Below, one piece after another: positions 271 through 38,508 of a stretch of 40,771 nucleotides of DNA (the stretch's first letter is position 1; each line of letters opens with the position of its first letter). A program made the position numbers and the translations under genes. A model generated the notes under the pieces. The model did not search any database, had not been told where the DNA came from, and worked only from the letters and a program-made list of their open reading frames with translations. Source of the DNA: Escherichia phage BUCT789; the sequence record PQ999132.1; one strand, written 5' to 3'.

Positions 271-299
271 ACTATAATAGCGAACTATTCACTTGTCAA
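271..299 (-). promoter_or_regulatory. sigma70-like promoter, TTGACA-N17-TATAGT (read on minus strand), for the leftward replication operon
   Basis: + strand tgtcaa at 294-299 and actata at 271-276 with a 17-nt spacer; same architecture at 34824-34852 and 38480-38508. Confidence 0.5.
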
Positions 300-303
300 T
301 GGG

Positions 304-332
304 CTTTTCTAAAATAATTAATATGGTACTAT
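304..332 (+). promoter_or_regulatory. weak promoter-like element, TACTAT -10 with poor -35, upstream of the HTH gene
   Basis: TACTATTCACAT at 327-338 matches the -10 and leader of the TTGCAC-N17-TACTAT family; the -35 (cttttc) is weak. Confidence 0.3.
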
Positions 333-363
333 TCACATATCAACTGACTAAGGAGTAATTGAC

Positions 364-579
364 ATGCAACCATCTGAACTAGGCATCCGTGTAGAACAGC
401 GCCGTAAAGAACTCGGTATTTCTCAGCGCCGTCTGGCTGTCCTGACCGGCGTTTCCCAGGGTGCAATTAACCAGCTTGCACTCGGGGTAACGCGGGACGT
501 CCGCCCAGCAACGCTGTTTAAACTGGCGGAAGTGCTAGAGGTAGACGCCAAGTGGCTGGCGTTCGGTGAAGGGGCTTAA
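364..579 (+). CDS. XRE-family helix-turn-helix transcriptional regulator (Cro/CI-like)
   Basis: 71 aa; RBS AAGGAG; HTH signature LGISQRRLAVLTGVSQGAINQL; divergent from the leftward operon. Confidence 0.8.
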   Translation: MQPSELGIRVEQRRKELGISQRRLAVLTGVSQGAINQLALGVTRDVRPATLFKLAEVLEVDAKWLAFGEGA

Positions 580-594
580 CGCCCCTTTCTTTTT
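571..594 (+). terminator. rho-independent terminator at the end of the HTH gene
   Basis: ggggc-ttaac-gcccc hairpin followed by tttcttttt; the stop codon sits in the loop. Confidence 0.55.
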
Positions 595-596
595 GC

Positions 597-2855
597 CTAT
601 TCCAAATCTTCCTCGGTCGCTATCAGCATCTCATTCGGTTCGTATATCGTCTTCGGTCTTAATCTGTCCCCCATCTTTTCAGGTATCCGGTATGTGCCTG
701 GTATAACTTCACCGTTAACATCGCACCCGAGCATCAACTCACCGTCTTTCAGCATCTTCTCAAGATGGTGGTTGGTGATGGCGTGGTCCCCCGAGTTCGC
801 CACTATCTGCCGTTGGGTGAAACCTCGTCCGGTGTCGTCTGACTGTTGCAGGTCTTCCAACGCGGCAAGTATTGATTCCTTACGCCCTTCATCCTTCCCA
901 CGTTTTACCGCGTTCTTTACGTTTTCTTTACCTTCTTTCGTCAGCCCTTCTTCCCGCTCTTTCTCCTCGTCAGTCTTGAACGGCTCGAAGCCCCACGGCA
1001 TCAGTACAAGCGCCTTGTGTGGTTCTGGCAGGTCGAGGTTTACGATTGTGCCATATTCCTCTGTGCTACCGAGGAACTCAACCGCGCGGTACTCTTTCGG
1101 CGGCGGCGCTTCACGGAACTGTACCGACTCCAGCACCATGCCAACCGTCTTCTGTTGAGGCCCATGCTTAAATTTCGAGTGGTATACGTTTATCTGGCGG
1201 TCGGTAGCGCGCTCAATTGTCAGCTCCACATCAACACCGGCATACAGCGCCCCGCTACCACGGGCTTTCTTTCCACCCTTAGGCGTATGGTGGACGACAC
1301 CCACAGCGGCTTTAGTTGCGTCGCGTACTTTTTTAAGGATGGCGATAACTTTACCCATGCCAATTGCAGTTGATGAACTGTTCTCGTCGAACTTGTCAAT
1401 TGTCAGGGCCAGCGTCTGGTTGAGGGTATCGAACGCGACCATACCAATAGGCTCGTCCCCTGCAGCTTCACGCATCCTGCGGATTAGCGCGGGGATTTTT
1501 TTATCACCATGCGCGGCGAGCACCTCACCCATATCAATGACATGTACGTAATCTTTACCTTCCTCGCCATATTTAGCCGCGAGTGCATCTATACGTGTGC
1601 GGGTAGCTGCGCCGCCCTCACCGTCGATATAAAAATGGTGGCAACGCTGCGTATCAGCTCCCGCAAACCGGTATCCGGCGGCGCTCAGGTACATCATCCC
1701 CAGCGTATAGAACGATTTGTACGTGCCGGATTCCCCAACAATATCCCAGATGCAATCTGACGGCATGTACCCCTCAACGACGAAATCAGCCTTTACCGGT
1801 TCAGGTAGCTCGTCCTCTTCTGAGTCATCATCGTCTTCCAGGTCGTCGAGGCTGCATGAAACAGATTCACGCACACCCCATCCGATAGCCTCGGCGACTT
1901 CACTGAACGGCAGCCCGGTCGCATCACACGCGTATTTCCACACTTCTTTCGGGGGCATTCCTTCGGTCGCGGCAATGTCGGTGTCGTGAATCATGGTTAC
2001 GTTCGGCGCTTCGTATCCCTCGCGCGGGAAACATAACAGGAAGTCGTCCGGGCGTGGTGTCGGGTCGCTGTAGTTTTCTGCGTGTTCTGGCGTAGCTGGC
2101 ATCTTAAGGCCACGCGGCGTCATGATGCCGCCGTACTCGAATGCCAGTGCTTCAAACGCATCTGTAAACGCGGTGCGCAGTTCTTCCGGTATCTGGTAAT
2201 CAGATGCGCTGCTGATGTCAACGGCTGGGACGCCTTCCAGTAACTCATCAGGGTCAATCAGGTCGTTGCGGCGCGACCAGATAACGGTAGCGCCGACAGG
2301 AGGCAAGTACATCGGCTGCGAAAGAGTGAACCCGCTGCGGTCGGCGCCCATGCCTTTGAAGAAGTGTTCCAGTAACCCATGACGAACGCGGATGATGTCA
2401 CCGCCTTCAACCGGGCTGGCCAGCGGCATGACGACACGAAAGCGCGGTGACTCATCTGTATGTGACGCCGTGGTATACAGGCACATCGCCCGGCGGCTAC
2501 GCTTAACCAGGCGCACCGCTTCTTGATACTCTTCCGGTGTTGCACTGTCGAAGTCCAGATACGCCAGCGACGATTTGCTTACAGACGCGTCACAGCGATA
2601 GAAGAAGCCTTTACGCGCTTGCTTAAAGTCACCGGTTTCCGGGTCTTTTACGGTGCTGTGCGTAGAGTCGCACGCGGCTGTGATATAGCCGGGGGCGGTC
2701 TTCGGGTTAATCCCGTCGCGAACGGCATCGAGCGGCTGAATTAACTCTTTCAGGTCGTCCAGTGTTGCCGTGTGTGTGGTTCTGACGTTTATATCCTTTT
2801 TCTCTGCCCGCGCGTTGCGACGTGACCACGAGTAGGATAAAATTACATCGGACAT
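597..2855 (-). CDS. DNA primase/helicase (RepA-like RecA-fold ATPase with N-terminal primase-like domain)
   Basis: 752 aa; Walker A GESGTYKS in the C-terminal half; large N-terminal domain; ends in EEDLE. Confidence 0.75.
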   Translation of the reverse strand: MSDVILSYSWSRRNARAEKKDINVRTTHTATLDDLKELIQPLDAVRDGINPKTAPGYITAACDSTHSTVKDPETGDFKQARKGFFYRCDASVSKSSLAYLDFDSATPEEYQEAVRLVKRSRRAMCLYTTASHTDESPRFRVVMPLASPVEGGDIIRVRHGLLEHFFKGMGADRSGFTLSQPMYLPPVGATVIWSRRNDLIDPDELLEGVPAVDISSASDYQIPEELRTAFTDAFEALAFEYGGIMTPRGLKMPATPEHAENYSDPTPRPDDFLLCFPREGYEAPNVTMIHDTDIAATEGMPPKEVWKYACDATGLPFSEVAEAIGWGVRESVSCSLDDLEDDDDSEEDELPEPVKADFVVEGYMPSDCIWDIVGESGTYKSFYTLGMMYLSAAGYRFAGADTQRCHHFYIDGEGGAATRTRIDALAAKYGEEGKDYVHVIDMGEVLAAHGDKKIPALIRRMREAAGDEPIGMVAFDTLNQTLALTIDKFDENSSSTAIGMGKVIAILKKVRDATKAAVGVVHHTPKGGKKARGSGALYAGVDVELTIERATDRQINVYHSKFKHGPQQKTVGMVLESVQFREAPPPKEYRAVEFLGSTEEYGTIVNLDLPEPHKALVLMPWGFEPFKTDEEKEREEGLTKEGKENVKNAVKRGKDEGRKESILAALEDLQQSDDTGRGFTQRQIVANSGDHAITNHHLEKMLKDGELMLGCDVNGEVIPGTYRIPEKMGDRLRPKTIYEPNEMLIATEEDLE

Positions 2856-2913
2856 GTTGTATTTCCTTCAGCAAGTAATTTGGCCTCGGCGTTCACCGCG
2901 TCGGGGCTTTCTT

Positions 2914-3147
2914 TTATTCCAGGTCTTCTAAAGTAGCGGTCATTCCGCGAACTTCAGCAACAGCACTATATTTCCCGCCAACATTCTTCACGACACCGGA
3001 TTTAACCAGTACCTTCAACGACCCTTCAATAATGGCGGAACTATAGTACCTAAAATAACTACGGCGCAAGTCCATAACGCTGCACGACCCTTTTTTACGG
3101 GTTAATGAAACGACTGCCGTAAATACGCGGGACTGGAACTCGGTCAT
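2914..3147 (-). CDS. hypothetical protein (77 aa)
   Basis: ORF overlaps the upstream gene stop by 4 nt (coupled); C-terminus LEDLE. Confidence 0.55.
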   Translation of the reverse strand: MTEFQSRVFTAVVSLTRKKGSCSVMDLRRSYFRYYSSAIIEGSLKVLVKSGVVKNVGGKYSAVAEVRGMTATLEDLE

Positions 3148-3347
3148 TTTACATTCTCCTTAATCCACGCTTCCACTTTCTCCGGGTCGAAAGTACCCGG
3201 CTGCCGGCGGCCCATAATACGGATACAACAATCCGGGAACTTCCCACTCTTTAACCAGTTATTCAGCGTGCGACGGGTAACCCCGATACGCTCGGCTACT
3301 TCATTCTGTGTCATTCTCAAATCCCCATTATCAGTTAACGAAAACAA
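3144..3347 (-). CDS. AlpA/excisionase-like HTH DNA-binding protein
   Basis: Motif MTQNEVAERIGVTRRTLNNWLKSGKFP; start may instead be the internal ATG at 3314, which has a GGGGA RBS. Confidence 0.65.
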   Translation of the reverse strand: MFSLTDNGDLRMTQNEVAERIGVTRRTLNNWLKSGKFPDCCIRIMGRRQPGTFDPEKVEAWIKENVK

Positions 3348-3748
3348 GTATACATTGCGAATAATGGGAAATCAAACATAATCGCACCTATTGACATTAT
3401 GAAAATCTTCGTTTAAGGTGCTTCTGTATCTTAGTTACTTTGATTCTTGTTCACCTTGTAAAACCCGCCGAAAACGAGCGCCCAACGCGAAGTGTTAGGC
3501 GGCAGTTTACTGAACATTCGAATTATCGTAACTTTCCTTCCTAAGTATCTCCGGTTGCCCTGGGCAAGCTCTATTCTCATCGACGGCATATCTCTTAAGT
3601 ATCTGATTTTCTTAATGTGCCGTAGATTCGCAACCGTAAAAATGTAACGATTAGTGGGCAGGCTTAAGGCCTGCCCTTTAGTTACCAAGTAATAAGAATA
3701 AAGGCACAACCCTCACTAAAGAACCACAACGGCAACGTAACTTTTCTC

Positions 3749-3777
3749 TTGCACACCCCAACATAATAGGATACTAT
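3749..3777 (+). promoter_or_regulatory. promoter, TTGCAC-N17-TACTAT with conserved spacer ATAATAGG
   Basis: TTGCAC 3749-3754, TACTAT 3772-3777; conserved leader TTATCGAAACGAG then RBS GAGGAG; near-identical copies at 5188-5216 and 22864-22892. Confidence 0.55.
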
Positions 3778-3811
3778 TCACTTATCGAAACGAGACAGAG
3801 GAGTGAGGGTT

Positions 3812-4003
3812 ATGTTTAAACGTGGTCAGTTGGCTAAAACGAAGCGAGGCGAACAGTACGTAATAGTGTTGCAGGACGAGAACGAGTATGACGAGGATAA
3901 GCTGGTTGACGTATGGGGTCTGGTAAGAAAGAAACCCGGGTTCGCCTTACGCGATAATCTGAAACTCATCGGCAACAATTTTAAATTCAAAGGGGTGAAG
4001 TGA
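3812..4003 (+). CDS. hypothetical protein
   Basis: ATG 3812 with GAGGAG RBS; track ORF 3803..4003 uses an upstream GTG. Confidence 0.6.
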   Translation: MFKRGQLAKTKRGEQYVIVLQDENEYDEDKLVDVWGLVRKKPGFALRDNLKLIGNNFKFKGVK

Positions 4004-4257
4004 TGGAAGAATTAATTTGTATTGAATCCAGCCAGGATGTGCAGGATTGGTTTGTTAAAGGTAACAGATATTCGTCCGGAGTATATTCCGACGGCCGTCG
4101 ATATGTTTTAGACGAAGACGGTGATGAATGGGATTTAAATGACGATGTAAGAGAAACTTTAACCGTTAGCAGGGTCAATGCTGTTTCTGCCTCATTCACA
4201 ACGGCATCGAATCATGATGCTCGTGCCGACGACTCTGAGGGAGGTTGCCGTGAATAA
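4003..4257 (+). CDS. acidic hypothetical protein
   Basis: ATG overlaps the upstream stop (TGATG); D/E-rich product. Confidence 0.6.
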   Translation: MEELICIESSQDVQDWFVKGNRYSSGVYSDGRRYVLDEDGDEWDLNDDVRETLTVSRVNAVSASFTTASNHDARADDSEGGCRE

Positions 4258-4305
4258 TTACCCGTTTATTTTAATAGTCAGCGCCGTTTATGTGGTGCAT
4301 GCGTT

Positions 4306-4539
4306 ATGGGGGCCGGTATGAGAAAACACATAATAAAGGTAGACCATCTGGACGGAGTTAAATTGCCGACGAATAAAGTAGAAACGTGGTGTGGGGCCAC
4401 TCCATCGTACGGTGAATGGCTGTTCCAGGATGCTCAACACGCCTTAATTGCTGTAGAAAACGGATTCAGGCAAGAGCCTTGCGCACAGTGTTTATCCGCT
4501 ATCGCCCAGATCGCAACTCAGGCGTTAAGTGAGGACTAA
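4306..4539 (+). CDS. hypothetical protein
   Basis: 77-aa ORF; alternative ATG at 4318. Confidence 0.55.
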   Translation: MGAGMRKHIIKVDHLDGVKLPTNKVETWCGATPSYGEWLFQDAQHALIAVENGFRQEPCAQCLSAIAQIATQALSED

Positions 4540-4542
4540 GTT

Positions 4543-4686
4543 ATGAGAGAAGCATTCGAACGGTGGGCCGTCGTCGAGGGTCTGCCGGTTAACAAGGGTT
4601 CGAAGAAAGAGTACCTGAACGTTAAGACGCGTCTCGCGTGGCGGGCGTGGAAAGCTGGTGTGTTGTTTATCGCGAATCGGAGGTGA
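4543..4686 (+). CDS. small hypothetical protein (47 aa)
   Basis: ATG 4543 with GAGGA RBS; fills the gap between flanking genes; stop 3 nt before the next ATG. Confidence 0.4.
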   Translation: MREAFERWAVVEGLPVNKGSKKEYLNVKTRLAWRAWKAGVLFIANRR

Positions 4687-4689
4687 TTT

Positions 4690-4875
4690 ATGGGTGAGTG
4701 GATTAAGTGTAGTGAGCGGATGCCTGAGCCTTATGAATACGTTCTTGTAACTGATTGTTTTGTTGGCTGTGAGGTTATGCGTGTTAATTCAGATGGCTAC
4801 TGGGGGCCTGCAAAGAGTTTATATCACGGTGATATAACGCACTGGATGCCGTTACCTGAGCCGCCGGAGGTGTGA
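4690..4875 (+). CDS. DUF551-like small phage protein
   Basis: 61 aa with EW...PE...VLV...HWMPLPEPPE pattern recalled for DUF551; not verified by search. Confidence 0.55.
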   Translation: MGEWIKCSERMPEPYEYVLVTDCFVGCEVMRVNSDGYWGPAKSLYHGDITHWMPLPEPPEV

Positions 4876-5009
4876 TGTTCAATAGTTTGGGATTTTACTG
4901 AGTGACTTACGCTGCTACACAGCAGCGTACAACTTTAGATTAGTGTCGTCAAAAAGCGACACTTTCACCAAACGCAACAATAGAAGCGACTATTGCAGGA
5001 GATGCAACA

Positions 5010-5180
5010 ATGAAACTGAATGACATCGTAACCTGGACTGGTAGAAACGGAGAAAAGCGATTCGGGCTTATTGTTGCGTCAGACGGCAACAAGTACCGTG
5101 TTATGCGATGGCGTCAGTGGGCACGACGCCCGAGGTACTACTGGATTCGTGGCGAACGATTATCTTTAAAACACCAATAA
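5010..5180 (+). CDS. small hypothetical protein (56 aa)
   Basis: ATG 5010 preceded by AGGAG; lies upstream of the 5188 promoter copy. Confidence 0.45.
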   Translation: MKLNDIVTWTGRNGEKRFGLIVASDGNKYRVMRWRQWARRPRYYWIRGERLSLKHQ

Positions 5181-5187
5181 AATTTAC

Positions 5188-5216
5188 TTGCACACACAGA
5201 TATAATAGACTACTAT
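5188..5216 (+). promoter_or_regulatory. promoter, TTGCAC-N17-TACTAT (second copy)
   Basis: TTGCAC 5188-5193, TACTAT 5211-5216; same spacer core and TTATCGAAACGAG leader as 3749-3777. Confidence 0.55.
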
Positions 5217-5245
5217 TCAGTTATCGAAACGAGAGGAGAGAGAAG

Positions 5246-5383
5246 ATGGGCTGGTACGGTAGCTGGGCATTAGGTGAACTGGTAGACGCTTACGAAATAA
5301 TGGGTAGCACTTCGGTATGCGACGGTGACACTAAATCGCTGCTAGTCGGGGTCGATGAGAAAAGGGGTGAAGACGATGAATAA
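5246..5383 (+). CDS. small hypothetical protein (45 aa)
   Basis: ATG 5246 after RBS GAGAGGAGAG; the upstream part of track ORF 5108..5383 is promoter sequence. Confidence 0.45.
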   Translation: MGWYGSWALGELVDAYEIMGSTSVCDGDTKSLLVGVDEKRGEDDE

Positions 5384-5531
5384 TTTCGTGGTGCAAGCAA
5401 TGTACGCTGAGGAAATGGCAAAAAGTATGTTAGAGCAAACATTACATTTCGCTAAGCTGCAAGGGTTCGACGTACAGACAGTAGGCGACGAAATAGTATT
5501 GACCGAGAAGTCGGAGAACGGCGATGAGTAA
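5376..5531 (+). CDS. small hypothetical protein (51 aa)
   Basis: ATG 5376 with AAGGGG RBS; overlaps neighbours at both ends. Confidence 0.4.
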   Translation: MNNFVVQAMYAEEMAKSMLEQTLHFAKLQGFDVQTVGDEIVLTEKSENGDE

Positions 5532-5883
5532 CAATGACGCAGTAATCGAGTTCCTGTTTAACCAACTACAGCAGCAGCTAACGAACAACCCATACAAGCA
5601 ACAGTGTGAAGACCTGGCGCATGAGGTGCAGTCACTTAAGAATCAGTTACGCGATATGTCGGAGCTGGTGGATGCGCTACCGGGGACGATAACGTTAATG
5701 AACGGGAAATCTAGTTGCCGTAAAGAAGACGCGCAGGAATGCGAGCATGATTGGTTGCATAGTAAACACAAAAGCGGCTTCGTTTGCTTTAAGTGTGGGG
5801 CGCGCGAAGAGTGTGAACACGATTGGTACTTTTACGATAAAGGCGCGTCGATGATGTGCAAGAAATGCGGGCTGAAGAAATGA
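5524..5883 (+). CDS. zinc-ribbon protein with two CEHDW...CxKCG units
   Basis: 119 aa; ECEHDW...CFKCG and ECEHDW...CKKCG repeats; paralogous unit in 8369..8608. Confidence 0.65.
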   Translation: MSNNDAVIEFLFNQLQQQLTNNPYKQQCEDLAHEVQSLKNQLRDMSELVDALPGTITLMNGKSSCRKEDAQECEHDWLHSKHKSGFVCFKCGAREECEHDWYFYDKGASMMCKKCGLKK

Positions 5884-6083
5884 CCAGCATCCTCTTTATC
5901 TGGGTACTGTCCGCAGGCCAGATGCAACTGGCGGCAGCAGAAACGTTTTATTCGATGGAGGCGTGCCAGTCAGCGGCACGCGCCGCAGAGAACGCGCACT
6001 TCCTGTTTCAGGGCGACAAGCCCAACGATTCAGAGGTACGCGCTATCTGCTCACCTAAGCGACTTGGTAAACAGGAGAGATAA
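5880..6083 (+). CDS. small protein with N-terminal hydrophobic segment
   Basis: ATG 5880 overlaps upstream stop (ATGA); N-terminus MTSILFIWVLSAG. Confidence 0.5.
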   Translation: MTSILFIWVLSAGQMQLAAAETFYSMEACQSAARAAENAHFLFQGDKPNDSEVRAICSPKRLGKQER

Positions 6084-6376: not shown

Positions 6377-6385
6377 ACCGTTATT

Positions 6386-6446: not shown

Positions 6447-6451
6447 TCATC

Positions 6452-7750: not shown

Positions 7751-7772
7751 ATCTGTTTTCCACAATGACTAG

Positions 7773-7801
7773 TTGACTATTACCATCGACCCTATTATAT
7801 T
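7773..7801 (+). promoter_or_regulatory. sigma70-like promoter, TTGACT-N17-TATATT
   Basis: TTGACT 7773-7778, exact 17-nt spacer, TATATT 7796-7801; drives the 7835-9589 small-gene block. Confidence 0.55.
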
Positions 7802-13116: not shown

Positions 13117-13136
13117 AGCCCCGAAAGGGGCTTTCT
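13117..13136 (+). terminator. intra-operon hairpin (attenuator-like) after the portal gene
   Basis: gcccc-gaaa-ggggc followed by tttctt. Confidence 0.4.
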
Positions 13137-13142
13137 TATAGT

Positions 13143-14219
13143 ATGCTATTAACTTTAGCGCCACAGGGTTTATCTATGAGCTTACTTACATCACTAATCA
13201 GCCACCAGATATGGCTGCAACGCACCGCTTCCGGTGAGGTGAAAGACCTCGCGCCGTTCATTCAGGAAATGCGGGACGAAATCAAACGGCAGGTTCTGCT
13301 ATTCGGCGACGACGGGCGAAGCACTGCGCGACTGAATAGACTGTTACGCGACCTCGAAGAAGCACTGGCAGGACTTACAGGCGACTGGCAAACAAAGCTG
13401 ACAGAAGACCTTAAGGCGCTGGCGGCGTATGAGGCTGAGTGGAACGTAAAAACGCTGACGGCTAACGTTAACGCTGAATTTGTTACACCTACCGCCGAGC
13501 AGGTGTGGTCCGCTGCCGAGTTTCAGCCATTATCATTAAGTGATAAGCCGGTTGACTTCACTAAGCTGATGGATGGCTGGGGTGAAACAGAAGTATCGCG
13601 CCTGGTAACCGGCGTTAAGATGGGCTTTGTACAAGGCCAGACAACACGGCAGATTGTTAAGAATGTCGTTGGCGCTGGTGGGCTGGCGGACATCTCTGAG
13701 CGTAACGCGGCTACGGTAATCCGCACTGCGCTGTCTCACGTATCCAACGAAGCCCGTAACGAGACGTACCGCCAGAACGACGACATCATCGAGAAGTACG
13801 AGTGGGTGTCGACGCTGGACAGCCGTACCAGTACGATTTGCAGGGCCAGAGACGGAATGACGTGGGAAATCGGTAAAGGGCCAATGCCCCCCGCCCATCC
13901 GAACTGCCGGTCGTGTACGGCTCCGGTAATAAGTTCCGAGTTCGACTTCCTCGATAAAGGAGCGAAACGCGCGGCTAAGGGTGCAGAAGGAGGAACTCAG
14001 GTAAGCGCGGACACAACCTATTACGAGTTCCTCAGACAACAACCGGCGTGGTTTCAGGACCAGGCGCTCGGCCCTGTTCGCGGTAAGATTTTCCGTAACA
14101 GCGGTATATCGCCGGAAGAGTTTCGCGTAATATCTGTAGATGGTTTCGGGAATCCGCTCACGCTTAAGCAGATGGCGGAACTCGATAAACGTGTTGCTGA
14201 TTATCTGAAAGGGGATTAA
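13143..14219 (+). CDS. head morphogenesis protein (Mu F / SPP1 gp7-like minor head protein)
   Basis: 358 aa; conserved-looking region CRARDGMTWEIGKGPMPPAHPNCRSC; position after portal. Confidence 0.75.
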   Translation: MLLTLAPQGLSMSLLTSLISHQIWLQRTASGEVKDLAPFIQEMRDEIKRQVLLFGDDGRSTARLNRLLRDLEEALAGLTGDWQTKLTEDLKALAAYEAEWNVKTLTANVNAEFVTPTAEQVWSAAEFQPLSLSDKPVDFTKLMDGWGETEVSRLVTGVKMGFVQGQTTRQIVKNVVGAGGLADISERNAATVIRTALSHVSNEARNETYRQNDDIIEKYEWVSTLDSRTSTICRARDGMTWEIGKGPMPPAHPNCRSCTAPVISSEFDFLDKGAKRAAKGAEGGTQVSADTTYYEFLRQQPAWFQDQALGPVRGKIFRNSGISPEEFRVISVDGFGNPLTLKQMAELDKRVADYLKGD

Positions 14220-14705: not shown

Positions 14706-14755
14706 AGCGCCTGCGATTATTCCAGTTATTCCACCGAATTGTAAATGTTGGAATA

Positions 14756-14771
14756 AACTATTCGAATAGTT
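14756..14771. promoter_or_regulatory. perfect 16-bp palindrome AACTATTCGAATAGTT overlapping a -35 element (operator candidate)
   Basis: Exact inverted repeat; shares the ACTATTC core found at the TACTAT promoters. Confidence 0.45.
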
Positions 14772-14798
14772 GACTTTTCACTGAAAATGTGCTAAGCT
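14770..14798 (+). promoter_or_regulatory. sigma70-like promoter, TTGACT-N17-TAAGCT
   Basis: TTGACT 14770-14775, 17-nt spacer, TAAGCT 14793-14798. Confidence 0.45.
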
Positions 14799-22835: not shown

Positions 22836-22863
22836 AATTATTTCCTCAGTAAGTTACATGTGA

Positions 22864-22892
22864 ATAGTACCCTATTATATTGGGGTGTGCAA
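22864..22892 (-). promoter_or_regulatory. promoter, TTGCAC-N17-TACTAT (minus strand), for the accessory cassette
   Basis: Reverse complement reads cTTGCACaccccaatataatagggTACTATtcacatg, near-identical to 3749-3777. Confidence 0.55.
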
Positions 22893-22999: not shown

Positions 23000-23416
23000 A
23001 TGAAACTTTCTGATTTCTATTTTGCCGACCGCCACGCCGCCGGTACTAAAATGCCTATCCTTCTGCCCAGTGGTAAAGATTCCGGTGAATGGTTGCAGGT
23101 CATCGGCCCCGATTGTGACGCTGGTGTTCGTGCGGGCCGTGCCTACACAACGGCAATTCGACGCCTTACGGAAGAACTTGCGCCATTAGATAAAGAGTGC
23201 GAGGCGCTGAATAACTGGGCGCGCTATAATGATGAGAAGGGCTGGCGGGTGATGGACCTGAACAAGCAGCTTGCCGTGGAAATCGTCACCGGTTGGTCAT
23301 TCGACGAACCATTCAGCAAAGAGGCGCTTGCTAACCTGTTCGACCAGTACAGTGGGTTGGCAGAGGCCGTAGTTAAGCATCACACCGATAGCCGTGAGAA
23401 ACTCTCGGAAAAGTAA
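23000..23416 (+). CDS. tail assembly chaperone (lambda G-like)
   Basis: 138 aa acidic protein directly upstream of the tape-measure gene. Confidence 0.6.
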   Translation: MKLSDFYFADRHAAGTKMPILLPSGKDSGEWLQVIGPDCDAGVRAGRAYTTAIRRLTEELAPLDKECEALNNWARYNDEKGWRVMDLNKQLAVEIVTGWSFDEPFSKEALANLFDQYSGLAEAVVKHHTDSREKLSEK

Positions 23417-32711: not shown

Positions 32712-32717
32712 AACTAA

Positions 32718-32737: not shown

Positions 32738-32739
32738 CT

Positions 32740-32877: not shown

Positions 32878-34304
32878 TTCTTACCTCGTCTCTTCATGTA
32901 ATTAAGCAACTCTTCCTGTACAGATTTCTTCTCGTCCGTACGCGCGGCAACAACCTCATCCAGCGTGTCTTTGGCAACGATATGATAGAGGAACACTGGG
33001 CGCTCGTGGCCTGCCTGTTTCTGGCGGACCGGGCCTATACGCTCGACAACCTGCAAATAGTGCTCAAGGTTCCAGCCTTGCGAGATGAATGCCAGATGAT
33101 GTCCGCCGTCCTGTAAATTCAAACCATGACCGGCTGACGCAGGGTGGACACATAAGATTTCGATTTCCCCGCGGTTCCACGCTTCCATCTGCTTATTACC
33201 CTTGGCGCCTTTTGCAAACGCCTGTGCCTGCGGGAATCGCTTAAGGATGCGCTCCAGTTCATGCTTAAACTGATAAGCCACAAGCAACGGTGCGCCCTGT
33301 AACTCCTCAACGATAGACTCCAGCGCATCCAGTTTCGTGTCGTGCACTTTCTCCCAGTCTTTGGTTGCCTCACCGTCTGGCCCCGACACATATACGGCAC
33401 CGGAGGCAATCTGCAAACACTTTGACGTCTTCGCCGCCGCGTTAGCCGCTTCAACTTCTCCGCTCTCCAGTTCCGCGAATAACTTCTCCTCCATATCGAT
33501 GTACGCCTGACGCGCCTTCTTCGGCAGGTCGATTTCAACCGGAACAATAATCGGCGCTTCGCAACCGAACCACTCTGCGGCGTCAATAGTGAGACTGATG
33601 TCCTTCATCTTCTGGTGAATTTCATTATCCGCGCCAGGGCGCGCATGATACTCACGCGCCATCGCGGATTTGCCTTTCTGTACCGAGTTAAACCAGCGGT
33701 CGGTGAATGCGGTGTATGAAGAACCGAGCCGCTCGCCCGCGTCGATAAACCAGTTCTGACCCCACAGGTCCTTGAGTCCGTTTGGCGACGGTGTGCCCGT
33801 CAGGTTAATGAAACGCTTAACTTTACCGAACGCAACCTTGCTGAGGGCCTTAGCCCTTTTGCTACCACCTGAACGGCTGCGGAACGATTTCAGCTTCGTG
33901 CTCTCATCAGCAACAATAACCGTAAAAGGCCAGTCGTCTTTGCCGTAGTAGTCAATAAGCCATTCGATAACTTCGTAGTTCGTGCAAACCACGTTAGCAT
34001 CCGACTCCAGCGCCGCGATGCGGCGCTTCTCTGAACCAGTCGCATCGACGACACGCAGACAAGGGAAGTTCCAACGTGCCTGTTCCGCGGGCCACGTACC
34101 TGACGCAACACGTAAAGGGGCAAGAATTAACACTCGGTCGTCGTCATTAAGTTGCCCATTACGGAACAGTCGATTGAGAACCCACAACGTTGACCCCGAC
34201 TTGCCGCTGCCCATCGAAGCCCAAATATTACAGCGAGGGTGCCGCAGCATGAACGAAGTCATGAGCTTTTGGTACTCTCGACGGATAAATTTAGACATAA
34301 TCAA
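32874..34304 (-). CDS. SNF2-family (DEAD-like) helicase/ATPase
   Basis: 476 aa; Walker A GSGKSG, DExx-type VIVADEST, LTGTPSPN (SNF2 motif III), HGLNLQ. Confidence 0.8.
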   Translation of the reverse strand: MIMSKFIRREYQKLMTSFMLRHPRCNIWASMGSGKSGSTLWVLNRLFRNGQLNDDDRVLILAPLRVASGTWPAEQARWNFPCLRVVDATGSEKRRIAALESDANVVCTNYEVIEWLIDYYGKDDWPFTVIVADESTKLKSFRSRSGGSKRAKALSKVAFGKVKRFINLTGTPSPNGLKDLWGQNWFIDAGERLGSSYTAFTDRWFNSVQKGKSAMAREYHARPGADNEIHQKMKDISLTIDAAEWFGCEAPIIVPVEIDLPKKARQAYIDMEEKLFAELESGEVEAANAAAKTSKCLQIASGAVYVSGPDGEATKDWEKVHDTKLDALESIVEELQGAPLLVAYQFKHELERILKRFPQAQAFAKGAKGNKQMEAWNRGEIEILCVHPASAGHGLNLQDGGHHLAFISQGWNLEHYLQVVERIGPVRQKQAGHERPVFLYHIVAKDTLDEVVAARTDEKKSVQEELLNYMKRRGKK

Positions 34305-34495
34305 CCCTTAACGTAGAGCACCAGCTCTTTACGCCCGAACGCCGTAACGTTACCCGTTACATCTTCGATAACCAGTTTACCGTTCGACTCGACGAACACC
34401 GTATCAACGGCAACCGGACGTCGGGTCTTAACGTTGAAAATCATGTCGCCCGGTACGATGTCACGTGCGGGTTTGCGGTCATATTCGTGTTTCAT
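34301..34495 (-). CDS. hypothetical protein (64 aa)
   Basis: Stop overlaps the helicase ATG (ATGA). Confidence 0.5.
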   Translation of the reverse strand: MKHEYDRKPARDIVPGDMIFNVKTRRPVAVDTVFVESNGKLVIEDVTGNVTAFGRKELVLYVKG

Positions 34496-34516
34496 TTCTC
34501 AATTCCTTATAGTTAA

Positions 34517-34530
34517 GGCCCCGAAGGGCC
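34517..34530 (-). terminator. intra-operon hairpin (attenuator-like)
   Basis: ggccc-cgaa-gggcc; moderately T-rich downstream on the minus strand. Confidence 0.35.
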
Positions 34531-34534
34531 TGTA

Positions 34535-34789
34535 TTAGTTAGATAATTCGCCTTGAACTTGCTTAATAAGTTCTCTGGCCGTTGTGAAGTCTACGGACAG
34601 CCCTTTAGCGACGTCTTCCGCAAGCACCTTGTGGCCAACTGACCCGAAGCCCAGGATACGGTTTACTTCCGAAACCTTCATATACCATGAGTAATTAACT
34701 GACGCCCCTGTGTATTTACCGATACGAACAGATGAATCGATTGAACCAATAATCATGGTGTTTACTGACAGTTGAAGTTCGATAGCCAT
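34535..34789 (-). CDS. hypothetical protein (84 aa)
   Basis: ATG 34789 immediately follows the VRR-NUC stop. Confidence 0.5.
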   Translation of the reverse strand: MAIELQLSVNTMIIGSIDSSVRIGKYTGASVNYSWYMKVSEVNRILGFGSVGHKVLAEDVAKGLSVDFTTARELIKQVQGELSN

Positions 34790-34790
34790 T

Positions 34791-35105
34791 TTATAATTCC
34801 TTATATTGTTGGGGTATGTGCTTACTATAATAGTCTGCTATTAGGGTGTCAATCTGTTTTATCGAACCAACGACAAAAACATTTGCGCCACGTTTGCGCA
34901 TCCGCTCATGCTCACGTAGCTGGTGGGGGTCAGGCTTCGTGTTTTCGTCTTTCTTAACCTCGACGAACCAGACGACGCCGCCGGGGAGAATTGCCAGCAG
35001 GTCGGGGGCGCCGGAACGCCCCTCGTAGGAAAGTTTACGAACGAGGCCACCAAGGGCCTCGAATCGCTCCTTTGCATATTTCTGTATTTTGCCTTCCGGG
35101 GTCAT
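34791..35105 (-). CDS. VRR-NUC domain nuclease
   Basis: Motif GAPDLLAILPGGVVWFVEVK; start taken as ATG 35105 overlapping the upstream small ORF stop; track lists TTG 35120. Confidence 0.7.
   Translation of the reverse strand: MTPEGKIQKYAKERFEALGGLVRKLSYEGRSGAPDLLAILPGGVVWFVEVKKDENTKPDPHQLREHERMRKRGANVFVVGSIKQIDTLIADYYSKHIPQQYKEL
34824..34852 (-). promoter_or_regulatory. sigma70-like promoter, TTGACA-N17-TATAGT (minus strand), inside the 3' end of the VRR-NUC gene
   Basis: + strand tgtcaa 34847-34852 and actata 34824-34829, 17-nt spacer. Confidence 0.45.
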
Positions 35106-35254
35106 GAGCGCAGAACCCAAGTAAGGAAAGCCCCGCCCAGAACGGCAACACCGACAAAATTAAAGAACAGGCCATAGCAGAACATCGCGGCTATTCCCGC
35201 ACCGAGTAGAAGTGCGAGCATGGTTACTATCGTCCAAAATACAAACATTGTCAT
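35102..35254 (-). CDS. small hydrophobic membrane protein (50 aa; absent from the ORF track)
   Basis: GAGGGG RBS; product MTMFVFWTIVTMLALLLGAGIAAMFCYGLFFNFVGVAVLGGAFLTWVLRS; stop overlaps the VRR-NUC ATG. Confidence 0.45.
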   Translation of the reverse strand: MTMFVFWTIVTMLALLLGAGIAAMFCYGLFFNFVGVAVLGGAFLTWVLRS

Positions 35255-35336
35255 AATACGCACCCCTCACGTTTCGTGTGCTCAATCCCGCAGCGCGGAC
35301 AGATTCGACAGTCTTCTTCATAGAACCAGTAGATTT

Positions 35337-35468
35337 TCATTCCAGCACCCACAGATAAATTGCGATGAACATACCTAATACGGCTACAATCATGCCGTAT
35401 TGGCCCTCGTGACAGTAGACACCGGCGGCAAATCCCGCCAGTACTGCGATAATCAGTTTACTTAGCAT
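35337..35468 (-). CDS. small hydrophobic membrane peptide (43 aa; absent from the ORF track)
   Basis: ATG 35468 overlaps the 3' end of the polymerase gene; product MLSKLIIAVLAGFAAGVYCHEGQYGMIVAVLGMFIAIYLWVLE. Confidence 0.4.
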   Translation of the reverse strand: MLSKLIIAVLAGFAAGVYCHEGQYGMIVAVLGMFIAIYLWVLE

Positions 35469-37731
35469 AACGGTACACCTCTTCCCCAGCCCATGTTAAC
35501 GGGAACCCTTCGGCCCACTCAGGTAATGAGCATAGCAGGTCACCCATCTCTTTAACCGTGTACTCTGGCGTGTCTGGCGTTTCGGCAACACATTCGTCAT
35601 GTACGTGGAGTACAATTGGGTAGCCCGCCGCCTCGACCGTCAGGAGTCCGTTAACCAGTAAATCACGGCACAACGCCTGGATGATGTTTTCACACAATTT
35701 TCCGCCGTGGGTGTACAAAGTTGTCCACTGGCGGGTGGTCTGATTTTCACCCTGATACTTAATGCGGACGTTAGTAGTAACGCGCCCATCCTCGTCAGTC
35801 TCTTTAGTGACGCTTAAGCCTATGCCAGGGTAGGACATGATGCGCCCAGACGGCAGTTCCACGCACAACCACCAACCCGGAACCGGATTACCGTGGTTGT
35901 CTTTTTCTTTGGTACGCCAGATGCGGATGGCTCTGTCGCCGTTAAGGCGTACTCGGGCCCCCGCCCAAAACTCTCGTCCCGGATTTCTGATGGCGGCTAT
36001 CACCGAATCCTTAAGGTCATTCCAGAATTTCACTGTTTCCGGATGGGCTTCCCGCCACATGCGCTTAATGGCGTCACAGGTGCGCCAGACTTCTTTAGGC
36101 AGCACATAAGAGGCCCGTTCATCTTTTTTACCAGGCTTTGGCGGGCGTTTAGCCTCCTGAATTCTGGCCCATTCGTAGCCACGGGCGGTAGCCGCCCAAA
36201 TGTGGTCGGGGAACGTGCCCCGCATTGTCTCTGTCATTTTAAAGAGGTCCAGCCCGTAAGTTTTAGCCATAGTCATAAAAGCCCCTACGCCCCCCTCGTA
36301 GCCGAGGCCGAGTTCGCAACATTTCCCGACCTGACGTAGGTCCTTACGGGTGGCTTTTAGTTCTACGGGGTCCATGCCAAACATCTTGCCCGCGGTGGCG
36401 CAATAAATATCAATCCCTGCGCGGAAGGTCTCAAGCGCGGATGTCTCCCCCGCGGTCCAGGCCAACCCGCGCCCTTCTACGTTTGAGTAGTCGGCAACGA
36501 GCAACTTATTACCCTTTTCAGGGATGATGCAACTGCGAACAGTCGAGGCTGTCAGCTTGGATACGTCGAAACGACGGTGCGCCCGACCCTTTAGCAGCAG
36601 ATTGATGCCGAACGATAGGGGGTTGAGACGACGGTTCCAGTCTTCGTCGGACTCCCACGGCTGGCGTACAAGTTTCTTCTCCTCGTTAGTCGGGTCATCA
36701 TGATAGTACCCGCGCGACAGGTTCTGCGGCTGGAACCCTTTACCCGCAAATCGTAAAGTGCGCTTTGCCCCACCGTACTGGATGCAACCGCGGCGGCGGC
36801 CGTCTTTGGACCGTCCTAGCAGGAGCGGTTTGTATTTTGTCGACGCCGTGGAGGCCGCGCCGAGGCGCATCTCAATGATTGTGCGCGCATCGTCAGGTAA
36901 GTCGTCGTCCTCTAGCAAACCTTCGAGCGTTGCTTTCTGCGCATTATAGATATTGTAGGCCGGTGCCAGCTCCCGAAGGATTGGCAGGAAGTCTTTACCC
37001 GTTAGCTTCCCGCCAAATTTAGCCCTGGCCTCGTTTTTTAGCTCTTGCTTGTGGCGTTCAACTGCTGCTACCGCCGCCTCAGCAAGAGCCGCATCAACAA
37101 AGAAGCCTCGGTCGTTGATTAACTGGTCAAGTTCAAGTACACGGTCCTCGAAATCGGAGTTACCCCAACGTGGCAGCTTATGGAAGACTTCACGCATCGC
37201 TGTGATGTCGCTCACGGCGTACTTGATGAACAGCGCCCATTCGTCCGGGTGCGTTTCGGCGGTGTAGCGGCGGATTTTATAGTTCTTCGGGGTTGGTTTG
37301 GAGAAACGCTGAATCAGAGCCTTGCCACGTTTATCTTTCGCGTTGTCGGCGGATACGCCCAGCACTTCGCATAATGCGTCAAGTGAACCCGGCAGCGCGT
37401 GGCGAAACGCCCAAATCATAGTGTCAATGGTGTTGCTGACCGGAATATCGAAGCCCCAGCAGTTCTTCATGATGAGCCTATCGAAAAGTCCACCGTTATG
37501 CCACACCATCTTAATGCGACTGTTTGGCTTCACCAGACGGCGTAACGCGCGGTGTAAATCTCCCGGCATGTCGCTGCCGTCAGTGCAGTCCCATACCTGA
37601 ACAGGCTCGTCATCAAAAGCATAGGTGCAGATGAGCACTTCGGTAGTCGGGTGTTCGGCGTAAGCATAGGAGCCGACTTTCTTCAAATCGGCTTCGGAGA
37701 AGGTTTCAAAGTCTAAGAACAGATAACTCAT
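35458..37731 (-). CDS. family A DNA polymerase with N-terminal 3'-5' exonuclease domain
   Basis: 757 aa; exo motif LDFETFSE; motif A DYSNVEGRGLAW, motif B RQVGKCCELGLGYEGG, motif C LHVHDE. Confidence 0.9.
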   Translation of the reverse strand: MSYLFLDFETFSEADLKKVGSYAYAEHPTTEVLICTYAFDDEPVQVWDCTDGSDMPGDLHRALRRLVKPNSRIKMVWHNGGLFDRLIMKNCWGFDIPVSNTIDTMIWAFRHALPGSLDALCEVLGVSADNAKDKRGKALIQRFSKPTPKNYKIRRYTAETHPDEWALFIKYAVSDITAMREVFHKLPRWGNSDFEDRVLELDQLINDRGFFVDAALAEAAVAAVERHKQELKNEARAKFGGKLTGKDFLPILRELAPAYNIYNAQKATLEGLLEDDDLPDDARTIIEMRLGAASTASTKYKPLLLGRSKDGRRRGCIQYGGAKRTLRFAGKGFQPQNLSRGYYHDDPTNEEKKLVRQPWESDEDWNRRLNPLSFGINLLLKGRAHRRFDVSKLTASTVRSCIIPEKGNKLLVADYSNVEGRGLAWTAGETSALETFRAGIDIYCATAGKMFGMDPVELKATRKDLRQVGKCCELGLGYEGGVGAFMTMAKTYGLDLFKMTETMRGTFPDHIWAATARGYEWARIQEAKRPPKPGKKDERASYVLPKEVWRTCDAIKRMWREAHPETVKFWNDLKDSVIAAIRNPGREFWAGARVRLNGDRAIRIWRTKEKDNHGNPVPGWWLCVELPSGRIMSYPGIGLSVTKETDEDGRVTTNVRIKYQGENQTTRQWTTLYTHGGKLCENIIQALCRDLLVNGLLTVEAAGYPIVLHVHDECVAETPDTPEYTVKEMGDLLCSLPEWAEGFPLTWAGEEVYRYAK

Positions 37732-37751
37732 TATTTTGACCCTTAGTAAAA

Positions 37752-37769
37752 AGGCCCAATAAAGGGCCT
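37752..37769 (-). terminator. rho-independent terminator/attenuator between SSB-like and polymerase genes
   Basis: aggccc-aataaa-gggcct; minus strand continues with TTTTTACT. Confidence 0.5.
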
Positions 37770-37789
37770 TAATTAAACAGATTCAGATA

Positions 37790-38422
37790 TTAACCACGGC
37801 GACGACGTTCGCGGCGCGGTGCTTCATCTTCTTCGTCGTCTTCCAGGTCGTCGGTGCTCGCTACTACACTGGAGCCGCCGAAGCGTTTACCTTCGCCCAT
37901 ATACTTGATGCCGAGGATGGTAGCGCACAGGTTTTTCCAATCTTTGTGCCACCATAATTCTACAGATACGTTTGCGATACATCCGCTATATACCTGCTCG
38001 CCTTCTATTTCTTTCCCGTCGATGTTGAAATCAGGCTCGGTTTGTTTTTCACCTTTAGCCGATGTCATAATCACCGGTTGGCGGTTGTTTGTAGCGCGGA
38101 AATACAGACCTTCTTCAAAATCCTCAATCGGATTATCTCGCATTGCCAGGTCACGGACGCAGCATTTGTCTGCGTGGTGGTCTGCACCGTAGTTGGCCTT
38201 CATCCATTTCTCGGCAGCAGCGGCCCCGATTGCATCTGTTACAACTTCCAACGCGGTGTCGTAAAGCGCATCAATTTGAGGATGGTCAGGCTGCATAAGA
38301 ACAGTAACCTGATACTTACCCTTAATCAGTTTACCGGTTTTCTTGTCCTCAGAGTCGGCAGCACGTTCAAATACGTTAACCCATGCAGTGTTTACTTTAC
38401 GCAGATTCAGTTTAATACCCAT
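37790..38422 (-). CDS. single-strand DNA-binding protein candidate (DUF2815-like) with acidic C-terminal tail
   Basis: 210 aa; C-terminus STDDLEDDEEDEAPRRERRRRG; sits next to the Cas4-like nuclease. Confidence 0.5.
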   Translation of the reverse strand: MGIKLNLRKVNTAWVNVFERAADSEDKKTGKLIKGKYQVTVLMQPDHPQIDALYDTALEVVTDAIGAAAAEKWMKANYGADHHADKCCVRDLAMRDNPIEDFEEGLYFRATNNRQPVIMTSAKGEKQTEPDFNIDGKEIEGEQVYSGCIANVSVELWWHKDWKNLCATILGIKYMGEGKRFGGSSVVASTDDLEDDEEDEAPRRERRRRG

Positions 38423-38479
38423 CGTGATTTCTCGCTTTTCAGTTTCGTTTACTCCGGGAGCTGCCCGGCCAGTGATTTA

Positions 38480-38508
38480 ACTATAATAGTTAGCTATTCA
38501 GGAGTCAA
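38480..38508 (-). promoter_or_regulatory. sigma70-like promoter, TTGACT-N17-TATAGT (minus strand)
   Basis: + strand agtcaa 38503-38508 and actata 38480-38485, 17-nt spacer. Confidence 0.5.

Follow-up and report, generated by a model that had tools for sequence, protein, structure and literature searches.

Three leftward promoters in the window (the whole 40,771-nt stretch analysed, which is the complete genome, circularly permuted, of a virulent E. coli phage of the genus Kagunavirus) carry the same short core, and a sequence-only reading of this DNA had suggested that the core might be the target of a single factor. Are these promoters of the host type, is the core something apart from them, and what might bind it? 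Read on the minus strand, the promoter at 299..271 (A1) is TTGACA AGTGAATAGTTCGCTAT TATAGT, that at 34852..34824 (A2) is TTGACA CCCTAATAGCAGACTAT TATAGT and that at 38508..38480 (A3) is TTGACT CCTGAATAGCTAACTAT TATAGT. The exact 17-nt spacing and the TATAGT reported earlier are thus present in all three, and the reported common -35 holds for A1 and A2 but not for A3. The description of TATAGT as unusual does not stand, as it matches TATAAT at five of six positions and swaps with TATATT in relatives. The plus strand has ACTATAATAG in each of the three, and the pattern TTGAC-N5-AATAG-N4-CTATTATAGT has three exact matches in the window, with no match within 3 mismatches in any of 100 shuffles.

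A1, A2 and A3 all have the features by which we recognised sigma-70 promoters (-35 near TTGACA, -10 near TATAAT, A at -11, T at -7 and a spacing of 17 ± 1 nt), and they are the best three in a sigma-70 scan of the window, scoring 11, 11 and 10 of 12 positions, respectively. Their -10 elements end 33, 35 and 58 nt from the ATGs at 239, 34789 and 38422, and the genes downstream are leftward replication or recombination genes in the same orientation. The predicted targets are, for A1, the leftward gene from ATG 239 (which wraps round the window end), a 90-aa protein and a PD-(D/E)XK nuclease; for A2, an 84-aa gene (ATG 34789), a 64-aa gene and a SNF2-type helicase; and for A3, the ssDNA-binding protein gene (ATG 38422) and DNA polymerase I. 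A3 lies 5 nt past the nuclease stop codon. A2 sits, as had been noticed, within the 3' end of the VRR-NUC gene 34791..35105(-), in its last ~20 codons (this ORF has a match to PDB 4QBN at E=2e-51 and a weaker one to 4QBL, an entry named VRR-NUC). Because their hexamers are near consensus and lie in the right orientation at the right distance from leftward starts, A1-A3 behave as real promoters, and we infer that they are very probably host sigma-70 promoters.

The core is a 14-bp palindrome, AATAG-N4-CTATT, with six perfect copies in the window against 0.03 ± 0.17 expected, and 11 copies with at most one mismatch against 1.12 expected. Three of the perfect copies are the candidate operators in A1 (276..289, AATAG-CGAA-CTATT), A2 (34829..34842, AATAG-TCTG-CTATT) and A3 (38485..38498, AATAG-TTAG-CTATT), hereafter type A promoters. 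The remaining three all lie in putative promoters of the form TTGCAC-N17-TACTAT (type B): B1 at 3749..3777(+) with its operator at 3765-3778 covering the -10, B2 at 5188..5216(+) with its operator at 5204-5217, and B3 at 22864..22892(-) with its operator at 22863-22876. These are predicted to serve, respectively, rightward small genes from ATG 3813, rightward genes from ATG 5247, and a 108-aa gene (ATG 22835) together with a phosphoesterase and a DUF3310 gene. The earlier statement that the core recurs in a rightward promoter family is borne out by 3765-3778, 5204-5217 and a degenerate copy at 320-333, but the copy at 22863-22876 belongs to leftward B3; with TTGCAC-N17-TACTAT thus present on the minus strand too (22892..22864), the promoter families cannot be told apart by strand, and the division into a leftward and a rightward one has to be given up. 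The two families are instead the same palindrome set at two registers with respect to the hexamers: 4 nt separate it from the -35 in type A and 10 nt in type B, a shift of 6 bp that places its center near -18.5 in the former (span ~-25 to -12) and near -12.5 in the latter (span ~-19 to -6), overlapping core promoter elements in both. A further imperfect copy, ACTAG-TTGA-CTATT at 7768..7781, lies over the -35 of a putative promoter at 7773-7801(+), TTGACT-N17-TATATT, downstream of the lysis genes and upstream of the packaging genes; in Jerseyvirus it is kept as a 9/10 palindrome with the mismatch on the opposite arm.

Could these simply be plain strong host promoters, whose 29-nt likeness reflects common descent or selection for strength and whose palindrome is functionless? 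The right arm CTATT does overlap the -10 in both promoter types (it shares bases with TACTAT in type B and includes the first T of TATAGT in type A), so that part of its conservation is promoter constraint, and Cornellvirus-type phages have homologous, palindrome-free promoters for the same gene arrays, so the palindrome is not needed for transcription. Plain promoters do not account, however, for the excess of perfect palindromes over chance, nor for the occurrence of one dyad in both orientations and in three registers relative to the -35 (the third is a distance of 7 nt in one Jerseyvirus promoter). They also leave the left arm unexplained: sigma-70 reads no bases in the spacer that contains this arm, yet the arm varies no more than the -10 does, and the intervening N4 is the most variable part. 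In relatives' loci that were picked independently of the motif, arm entropy is 0-0.11 bit and N4 entropy 0.59-1.08 bit, with 7-10 variants. We therefore consider the plain-promoter explanation unlikely.

The distribution of the palindrome among relatives is as follows. It is perfect at 34 of 34 Kagunavirus-type and 12 of 12 Jerseyvirus-type loci and at none of 29 other loci that carry Cro homologues, and it is absent anywhere in Cornellvirus-type phages, which have kept at least the SSB and gp32-like (site 1) homologous promoters. Thirty-one Kagunavirus intergenic variants have A1 conserved. Relatives have 4 or 5 nt between the -35 and the palindrome at site 1, and a fixed distance from the palindrome to the -10; the homologue of this site keeps its position with weaker hexamers, TTGCAT-N17-TACAGT in Jerseyvirus and TTGCAC/TTGCAT-N18-TATAGT in Cornellvirus types. 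Site 2 (A2) is kept in Kagunavirus and is TTGATA-N17-TATATT in Jerseyvirus, and site 3 (A3) has TTGACA with TATAGT or TATATT across all three genera (also TATCTT in Cornellvirus types) below differing upstream sequences. The promoter flanks diverge among relatives while the hexamers of sites 2 and 3 stay. At arm position 4, C is tolerated in Jerseyvirus operators (AATCG) and never seen in those of Kagunavirus. All such correlations are confounded by phylogeny, with essentially two clades that have the motif and one that does not. Because its register varies and Cornellvirus-type phages keep at least two of the promoters without it, the palindrome is separable from the hexamers and probably constitutes a protein-binding operator distinct from them; its nearly invariant arms and variable N4 fit the earlier proposal of one factor for the shared core.

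The motif is already present in two published genome papers, and what is put forward here is its reading as a host-type promoter with a dyad operator. The PHIRE 'phage-specific promoters' of Kagunavirus fBC-Eco01 (PMC9825357) and of VB_EcoS-Golestan, tgAATAGTa-ccTATTat-T at 7 sites per genome, are the same motif and include homologues of 276-289, 320-333, 3765-3778 and 5204-5217; a homologue of A3 is absent from the readable published entries (7/7 for Golestan, 6/7 for fBC-Eco01). Both papers give 20-mers without -35/-10 context and leave the dyad unremarked, and one credits a phage RNA polymerase. That the motif is a promoter for a phage-encoded enzyme, as stated for fBC-Eco01, agrees with its recovery by PHIRE as a repeated element, seven copies of which are labelled 'phage RNAP promoters' (PMC9825357). 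We nevertheless regard this as almost certainly wrong: no RNA polymerase gene is present among the window ORFs or in the annotations of the related records examined, every large ORF has another function to account for it, and the motif is a dyad, used in both orientations, that lies between or over good -35 and -10 hexamers at 17-nt spacing. The host-promoter-plus-operator reading would thus correct the published attribution. Salmonella phage vB_SenS_PVP-SE2 (Jerseyvirus, MF431252) has phiSITE-predicted promoters at homologous places, namely before the SSB gene, inside the nuclease gene 3' end, and, facing both ways, in the Cro/gp32-like intergenic region; these are predictions only, with the shared operator unnoted. 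In Jerseyvirus the promoter sequences are TTGACA/TTGATA/TTGCAT-N17-TATATT/TACAGT, and the arms are TAATAG or TAATCG.

Which protein might occupy the palindrome? The gene at 364..579(+) encodes a 71-aa HTH_3 protein (PF01381, E=6.5e-13) that resembles 434 Cro, also 71 aa, at E=1.7e-6 over residues 6-68 and is alignable with it over the whole length. It is monocistronic, is followed by a terminator at 568-588, and diverges from A1, with two operators between them: 276-289 and, 44 bp away center to center, the imperfect AATAT-GGTA-CTATT at 320..333 in the Cro-like gene's promoter region. HTH_3 dimers bind the operators of 434 Cro and repressor and those of the P22 c2 repressor. The sites of 434 are 14 bp long, ACAAx-N4-xTTGT, with contacts to the outer 5+5 bases and none to the inner 4 (PMC1636474), and in P22 repressor sites the central 4 bp are likewise uncontacted and non-conserved (PMC4267663); the palindrome here has the same length as the 434 operators, the same conserved outer 5+5 and the same variable inner 4. 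In both systems, as here, operators are found over the -10 or spacer of sigma-70 promoters, and a region of divergent promoters contains the regulator gene. Unlike 434 and P22, single operators are dispersed over at least six promoters of a virulent genome: a three-operator cluster of the OR/OL kind was not found at the regulator gene, where there are only the two sites, and the annotations of the related records examined include neither a cI-like gene nor an integrase gene. Where 434 has the half-site ACAAG, the palindrome has AATAG, and the recognition helix is SQGAINQ instead of QQSIQL.

Across all Kagunavirus loci that helix hardly varies, with a single G-to-S variant, even though identity of the Cro-like protein falls to 77-80% at some of them, and Cornellvirus has a different recognition helix and no palindrome. 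The comparison with Jerseyvirus is less simple: its Cro-like proteins are ~50% identical to those of Kagunavirus, 4 of 8 recognition-helix positions differ (one of them, the position of 434 Gln33, has H in place of Q) and yet the operator core hardly differs, and the Jerseyvirus helix is closer to that of Cornellvirus, which has no such palindrome. Weighing these sequence comparisons, we give the 364-579 product an even chance of being the binder.

The sequence-only reading had put forward both XRE and AlpA-like proteins as binders, and the two fare differently. The 'AlpA family' protein at 4306-4539 (so labelled in the closest record) has no DNA-binding domain match and is absent from a relative that keeps the motif. 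The other AlpA-like candidate is a 56-aa HTH_17 (excisionase/AlpA-like) protein encoded at 3144..3314(-). Its identity across Kagunavirus and Jerseyvirus is 71-100%, and Cornellvirus-type genomes lack it, a distribution that fits the motif better than that of the ~50%-identical Cro-like proteins; by gene order and domain names, its gene may also be among only four early-class genes of a Kagunavirus transcriptome (PMC12645636). Two Kagunavirus contigs (L143 and L170), however, have replaced the gene with unrelated 149-aa and 47-aa genes and yet have perfect palindromes at every promoter within the stretch compared; moreover, the protein has no evident dimerisation part, and its gene's own promoter (3375..3347) is palindrome-free. 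We think it improbable that this protein binds the palindrome, and the XRE/Cro-like protein is the better candidate because both AlpA-like proteins are missing from motif-keeping relatives.

The position of the palindrome in the type A spacer also brings to mind loading sites for antiterminators of the Q/AlpA type, since the lambda Q-binding element lies between -35 and -10. The element bound by Pseudomonas aeruginosa AlpA lies there as well (PMC9371919), and the 'AlpA family' label occurs in the closest record. AlpA binds a 6-bp site as a single molecule through DNA-contact residues 128-142, has a ring-forming N-terminal part, and requires a downstream -10-like pause element (PMC9371919). It is far larger than the candidates here (56-77 aa, little more than DNA-binding domains), the site here is a dyad that in type B covers the -10 itself, and no -10-like pause element was seen in the leaders of A1-A3. 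An antiterminator loading site is accordingly very improbable. If the binder were a transcription factor shared by the hosts E. coli and Salmonella, coupling early transcription to host physiology, that would explain why phages of both have the motif, and the 7768-7781 variant ACTAGTTGACTATT bears some resemblance to the TrpR operator core, ACTAGTTAACTAGT. The palindrome arms are AATAG, though, unlike the CTAG that is critical for TrpR; we know of no E. coli factor with an AATAG-N4-CTATT consensus, and Cornellvirus-type phages also infect Salmonella, yet lack the motif. This explanation appears to us quite unlikely.

On balance we favor host promoters in which an operator for a dimeric repressor of the phage is embedded, the repressor being most plausibly the Cro-like 364-579 product; repression is here inferred from the placement of the sites. 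Host RNA polymerase would re-initiate leftward transcription at three points of the replication/recombination gene array, where the type A operator sits in the spacer and touches the -10, and the type B operator would cover the -10 of promoters for other early genes, with weaker copies in the promoter of the regulator gene itself and across the -35 of the promoter that precedes the packaging genes. These operators would be occupied by a phage helix-turn-helix protein acting as a dimer and blocking RNA polymerase, and as it accumulated, early and middle transcription would be turned down together. Cro acts comparably in lytic growth, and repression from an operator within a promoter by Cro-like proteins is textbook biology, so that the control proposed is of an ordinary kind and changes no general concept. 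At the type B promoters, which match the consensus at only ~7 of 12 positions, the factor could conceivably act positively. The proposed control would provide a model of early-gene shut-off in which one small protein acts through one 14-bp site at at least six promoters, in a subfamily (Guernseyvirinae, with Kagunavirus and Jerseyvirus) whose members are widely isolated as agents of therapy and biocontrol against E. coli K1 and Salmonella, and it could yield natural repressible promoters of graded strength.

More tentatively, and with rather less confidence, a lone 434-Cro-type protein without a CI partner might serve as a genome-wide timer in this strictly virulent siphovirus subfamily. One 14-bp operator would lie in two registers inside every early and middle promoter, with deliberately imperfect copies at the promoter for this protein and across the -35 of the one ahead of the packaging genes, and rising Cro would shut the promoters in order of operator quality. 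In the timer scheme a single operator would also control divergent transcription at two sites. The reverse face of the B1 operator (3790..3762, TCGATA-N17-TATGTT) is promoter-like in the leftward direction, and that of the B3 operator (22853..22881(+), GTTACA-N17-TATATT), whose homologue is annotated in the + direction in MF431252, is likely the promoter of the tail assembly/tail operon that starts at 23000.

The sequence-only reading had described three leftward promoters with one common -35 hexamer, an exact 17-nt spacing and the -10 hexamer TATAGT, and this observation is confirmed. Read on the minus strand, the three type A promoters are as follows: TTGACA-AGTGAATAGTTCGCTAT-TATAGT (A1, 299..271), TTGACA-CCCTAATAGCAGACTAT-TATAGT (A2, 34852..34824) and TTGACT-CCTGAATAGCTAACTAT-TATAGT (A3, 38508..38480), and ACTATAATAG is the plus-strand reading common to all three. 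The 17-nt spacing is exact in each, and the sole error in the reading of the sites is the single -35, since A3 carries TTGACT. The 29-nt type A pattern has three exact matches in the window, none of 100 shuffles contained a match with three or fewer mismatches, and a sigma-70 scan ranked these sites as its three best matches genome-wide. Each is followed within 33-58 nt by a leftward ATG: ATG 239(-) after A1 starts a gene that wraps around the window end and is followed by a 90-aa gene and a PD-(D/E)XK nuclease, ATG 34789(-) after A2 an 84-aa gene followed by a 64-aa gene and an SNF2 helicase, and ATG 38422(-) after A3 the ssDNA-binding protein (SSB) followed by DNA polymerase I. This placement before three leftward gene sets suggests that transcription is re-initiated along a single long replication/recombination array. 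A2 indeed lies within the nuclease gene in which a copy had been reported (ORF 34791..35105); this ORF matches PDB 4QBN (E=2e-51), and PDB 4QBL, the entry named VRR-NUC, is a weaker match.

The genome that carries these sites is complete and circularly permuted. It belongs to a virulent E. coli siphovirus of the genus Kagunavirus (Guernseyvirinae) that is 98-99% identical to Escherichia phage Henuyfy11N across most of its length and has about 500 related Kagunavirus and Jerseyvirus records. Its bases 1-128 are repeated exactly at 40644-40771, and the repeat is either an assembly overlap or a terminal redundancy; the gene that begins at ATG 239(-) spans this junction. The first gene after A1 varies in relatives (loci L009-L126), with at least six unrelated N-termini behind an unchanged promoter and leader, so this promoter marks a mosaic junction. 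The leaders of A1 (248-259(-)) and of the B1 and B2 promoters below (3789-3806(+) and 5227-5240(+)) share AAACGAGA(CA)GAGGAG right before the start codon, a conserved ribosome-binding context ahead of otherwise unrelated first genes. The SSB gene leader (38447-38474(-)) has the form CACTGGCCGGGCAG-loop-CCCGGAGTAAAC with a variable loop, and is kept not only in Kagunavirus- and Jerseyvirus-type phages but even in Cornellvirus-type ones; the predicted stability of this hairpin is not unusual (z = 0.56), and it may act as a translational operator or mark a processing site.

The 14-bp palindrome AATAG-N4-CTATT is present in six perfect copies in the window (0.03 expected) and in 11 copies with at most one mismatch (1.1 expected). 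Perfect copies at 3765-3778, 5204-5217 and 22863-22876 cover the -10 of TTGCAC-N17-TACTAT (type B) promoters B1, B2 and B3, respectively. The core had been said to recur in a rightward promoter family, and it does recur in type B, but the 22863 copy serves a minus-strand gene, so leftward and rightward labels do not define the families; with such corrections the earlier interpretation is largely right. The two types differ in register: the palindrome starts 4 nt past the -35 in type A (about -25 to -12) and 10 nt past it in type B (about -19 to -6). An imperfect copy at 320-333 belongs to the promoter region of the Cro-like gene, and another, at 7768-7781, overlies the -35 of the promoter at 7773-7801. 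Type B sites read in reverse resemble weak type A promoters, and one such reverse face, 22853-22881(+), is the sole candidate promoter for the tail operon; its homologue is annotated in the same direction in Jerseyvirus PVP-SE2. A short-word self-BLAST recovered only terminators and one operator and is too insensitive as a self-similarity scan.

Predicted promoters are annotated at homologous positions, including one within the nuclease gene, in the Jerseyvirus GenBank record MF431252 (about 70% DNA identity). The motif itself has been described before: a PHIRE analysis of the Kagunavirus fBC-Eco01 reported seven copies as 'phage RNA polymerase promoters' with the consensus tgAATAGTa-ccTATTat-T (PMC9825357), and PHIRE detected it in VB_EcoS-Golestan as well (PMC7203180). 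The attribution to a phage RNA polymerase conflicts with the gene content, as the annotations of close relatives include no such gene and all large ORFs of the window have other assignments. The dyad, its -35/-10 context, the two registers and the link to a Cro-like protein are not noted in the papers found in the literature searchable here, and the published Kagunavirus transcriptome gives coarse early, middle and late classes only, with no start sites (PMC12645636).

Is the palindrome part of the promoter, or is it a site for something else? We compared two IMG/VR locus sets that were chosen independently of the motif, one by the conserved leader downstream of A3 and the other by the Cro-like protein. 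In these loci the arms are near-invariant (entropy 0-0.11 bit), the four central bp have 7-10 variants per site (0.59-1.08 bit), and the DNA upstream of the -35 drifts freely. At site 1 of many relatives the -35 is shifted by 1 nt relative to the palindrome, and the distance from palindrome to -10 is constant. The left arm falls within the spacer, a region in which no bases are read by RNA polymerase. Perfect palindromes occur in every Kagunavirus-type (34/34) and Jerseyvirus-type (12/12) locus and in none of 29 other loci with a Cro homologue, four of them Cornellvirus-type; two complete Cornellvirus-type genomes also lack the palindrome. Cornellvirus types nevertheless retain homologous promoters (e.g., TTGACA-CTGAATTATTAAACTAT-TATATT before the SSB gene), so the palindrome is dispensable for promoter activity. 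This conservation pattern is the one that would be expected from the binding site of a symmetric protein dimer.

Several other roles were rejected. Antitermination of the Q/AlpA-like kind involves the wrong protein size and a single-molecule 6-bp site, and the pause element is missing. If the palindrome arose from overlapping divergent -10 elements, there should be a divergent gene at A2 and A3, and there is none; moreover, symmetric bidirectional promoters have starts 18 bp apart, and the starts implied here are about 28-31 bp apart. An RNA or DNA hairpin is disfavored because the palindrome is upstream of the predicted starts and its 5-bp A/T-rich stem is too weak. An Rfam search of the whole window gave no family match.

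The window has two helix-turn-helix candidates for the binder, the Cro-like product of 364-579(+) and the HTH_17 product of 3144-3314(-). The former matches HTH_3 (E=6.5e-13) and, over residues 6-68, 434 Cro (E=1.7e-6), which is likewise 71 aa long; its monocistronic gene diverges from A1 across an interval that holds two operators. The 434 sites are 14 bp long, with the outer 5+5 bp contacted and the inner 4 not (PMC1636474), and the inner 4 are likewise uncontacted by P22 repressor (PMC4267663); this is exactly the geometry of AATAG-N4-CTATT. The recognition helix, GVSQGAINQLALG, is essentially invariant in all Kagunavirus loci (one G-to-S variant, L159), even where identity of the Cro-like protein falls to 77-80%. 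Against this candidate, Kagunavirus and Jerseyvirus proteins are only about 50% identical and their helices differ (SQGAINQ and SQSLITH, respectively), yet the operator core is the same, and the Jerseyvirus helix is nearer to that of Cornellvirus. A host or unknown factor might bind the shared core instead, which we consider quite improbable. The discrepancy in the helices is partly offset by differences in the operators: those of Jerseyvirus have T rather than G as the outer base and tolerate C at arm position 4, with AATCG fixed at the site 1 homologue in 11/11 variants. Arm position 4 is presumably the base that Gln33 reads in the 434 co-crystal papers, and at the residue that corresponds to Gln33 Kagunavirus has Q and Jerseyvirus has H. 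A protein search for independent lineages with the same recognition helix gave only Kagunavirus-like contigs with the same palindromes, so the link between helix and operator is still confounded by phylogeny.

The 56-aa HTH_17 protein has a phylogenetic profile that fits the motif distribution well: Cornellvirus types lack it, and in Kagunavirus and Jerseyvirus it is 71-100% conserved. Its gene is missing, however, from two Kagunavirus contigs (L143 and L170) in which every promoter of the stretch retrieved keeps its palindrome, and we think this protein unlikely to be the binder. In these contigs (L143 3551-4209, L170 12559-13144) the HTH_17 gene and a 77-aa gene upstream of the primase-helicase are replaced by genes for two other proteins, one of 149 aa whose C-terminus is winged-helix-like and one of 47 aa that is Cys-rich. 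The 'AlpA family' protein of the nearest record (4306-4539) was also rejected: it has no Pfam or DNA-binding domain match, its PHROG has no known function, and phage Snoke, with seven palindromes, does not encode it. The Cro-like protein is our candidate, and from the sequence comparisons we judge the chance that it is the binder to be evenly balanced.

Sites centered near -18.5 or -12.5 would exclude RNA polymerase, and since the promoters (at least type A) should be strong unaided, repression is the natural reading. An early-made dimer of the Cro-like protein would jointly lower the activity of the replication/recombination and small early-gene promoters, with a weaker effect expected at its own promoter and the 7773 promoter, whose operators are imperfect. 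Cro has the same role in the lytic growth of lambdoid phages; here there is no CI partner and no lysogeny module. We propose that the system is an ordinary 434/P22-type operator-in-promoter arrangement in a virulent phage.

Within the Cro/gp32-like intergenic region (window 276-333), one operator position is 44-45 bp from the other in Kagunavirus and 55 bp from it in Jerseyvirus (L173-L197), a difference close to one helical turn that may be a coincidence, since the second Jerseyvirus site is merely a half-site. In Cornellvirus-type genomes, dyad counts, intergenic k-mer enrichment and promoter inspection gave no replacement dyad of 434-like geometry; their intergenic DNA is enriched in words such as ACTAATC/GATTAGT and TAATATA. 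Words like TCTCCCCC/GGGGGAGA are also over-represented between the genes of both Cornellvirus-type genomes, and non-coding DNA of Salmonella phage vB_STM-ZS (L006 4023-4385) has many TCTCCCCC/GGGGGAGA repeats, which could be iterons of an origin.

Within the window, a near-palindrome, TATAG-TATG-CTATT (13137-13150), lies between a terminator (13117-13132) and the start of the head-morphogenesis gene, with no good -35; the Golestan paper (PMC7203180) lists an identical 20-mer as a PHIRE 'promoter'. At 14755-14797, which is upstream of genes for spanin, scaffold and capsid, the arms are in inverse order (CTATT-CG-AATAG); directly after them, AATAG-TTGA-CTTTT overlaps the -35 of a promoter-like, TG-extended site (TTGACT...TGCTAAGCT). 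This palindrome is not conserved in Jerseyvirus. Finally, 3353-3760 is about 400 nt without a convincing ORF (a listed 92-aa TTG ORF is conserved over 29 aa only, in one relative) and has hairpins at 3656-3676 and 3501-3479. Because this stretch is situated leftward of operator 3765-3778, whose reverse face is promoter-like, a non-coding transcript could arise from it.
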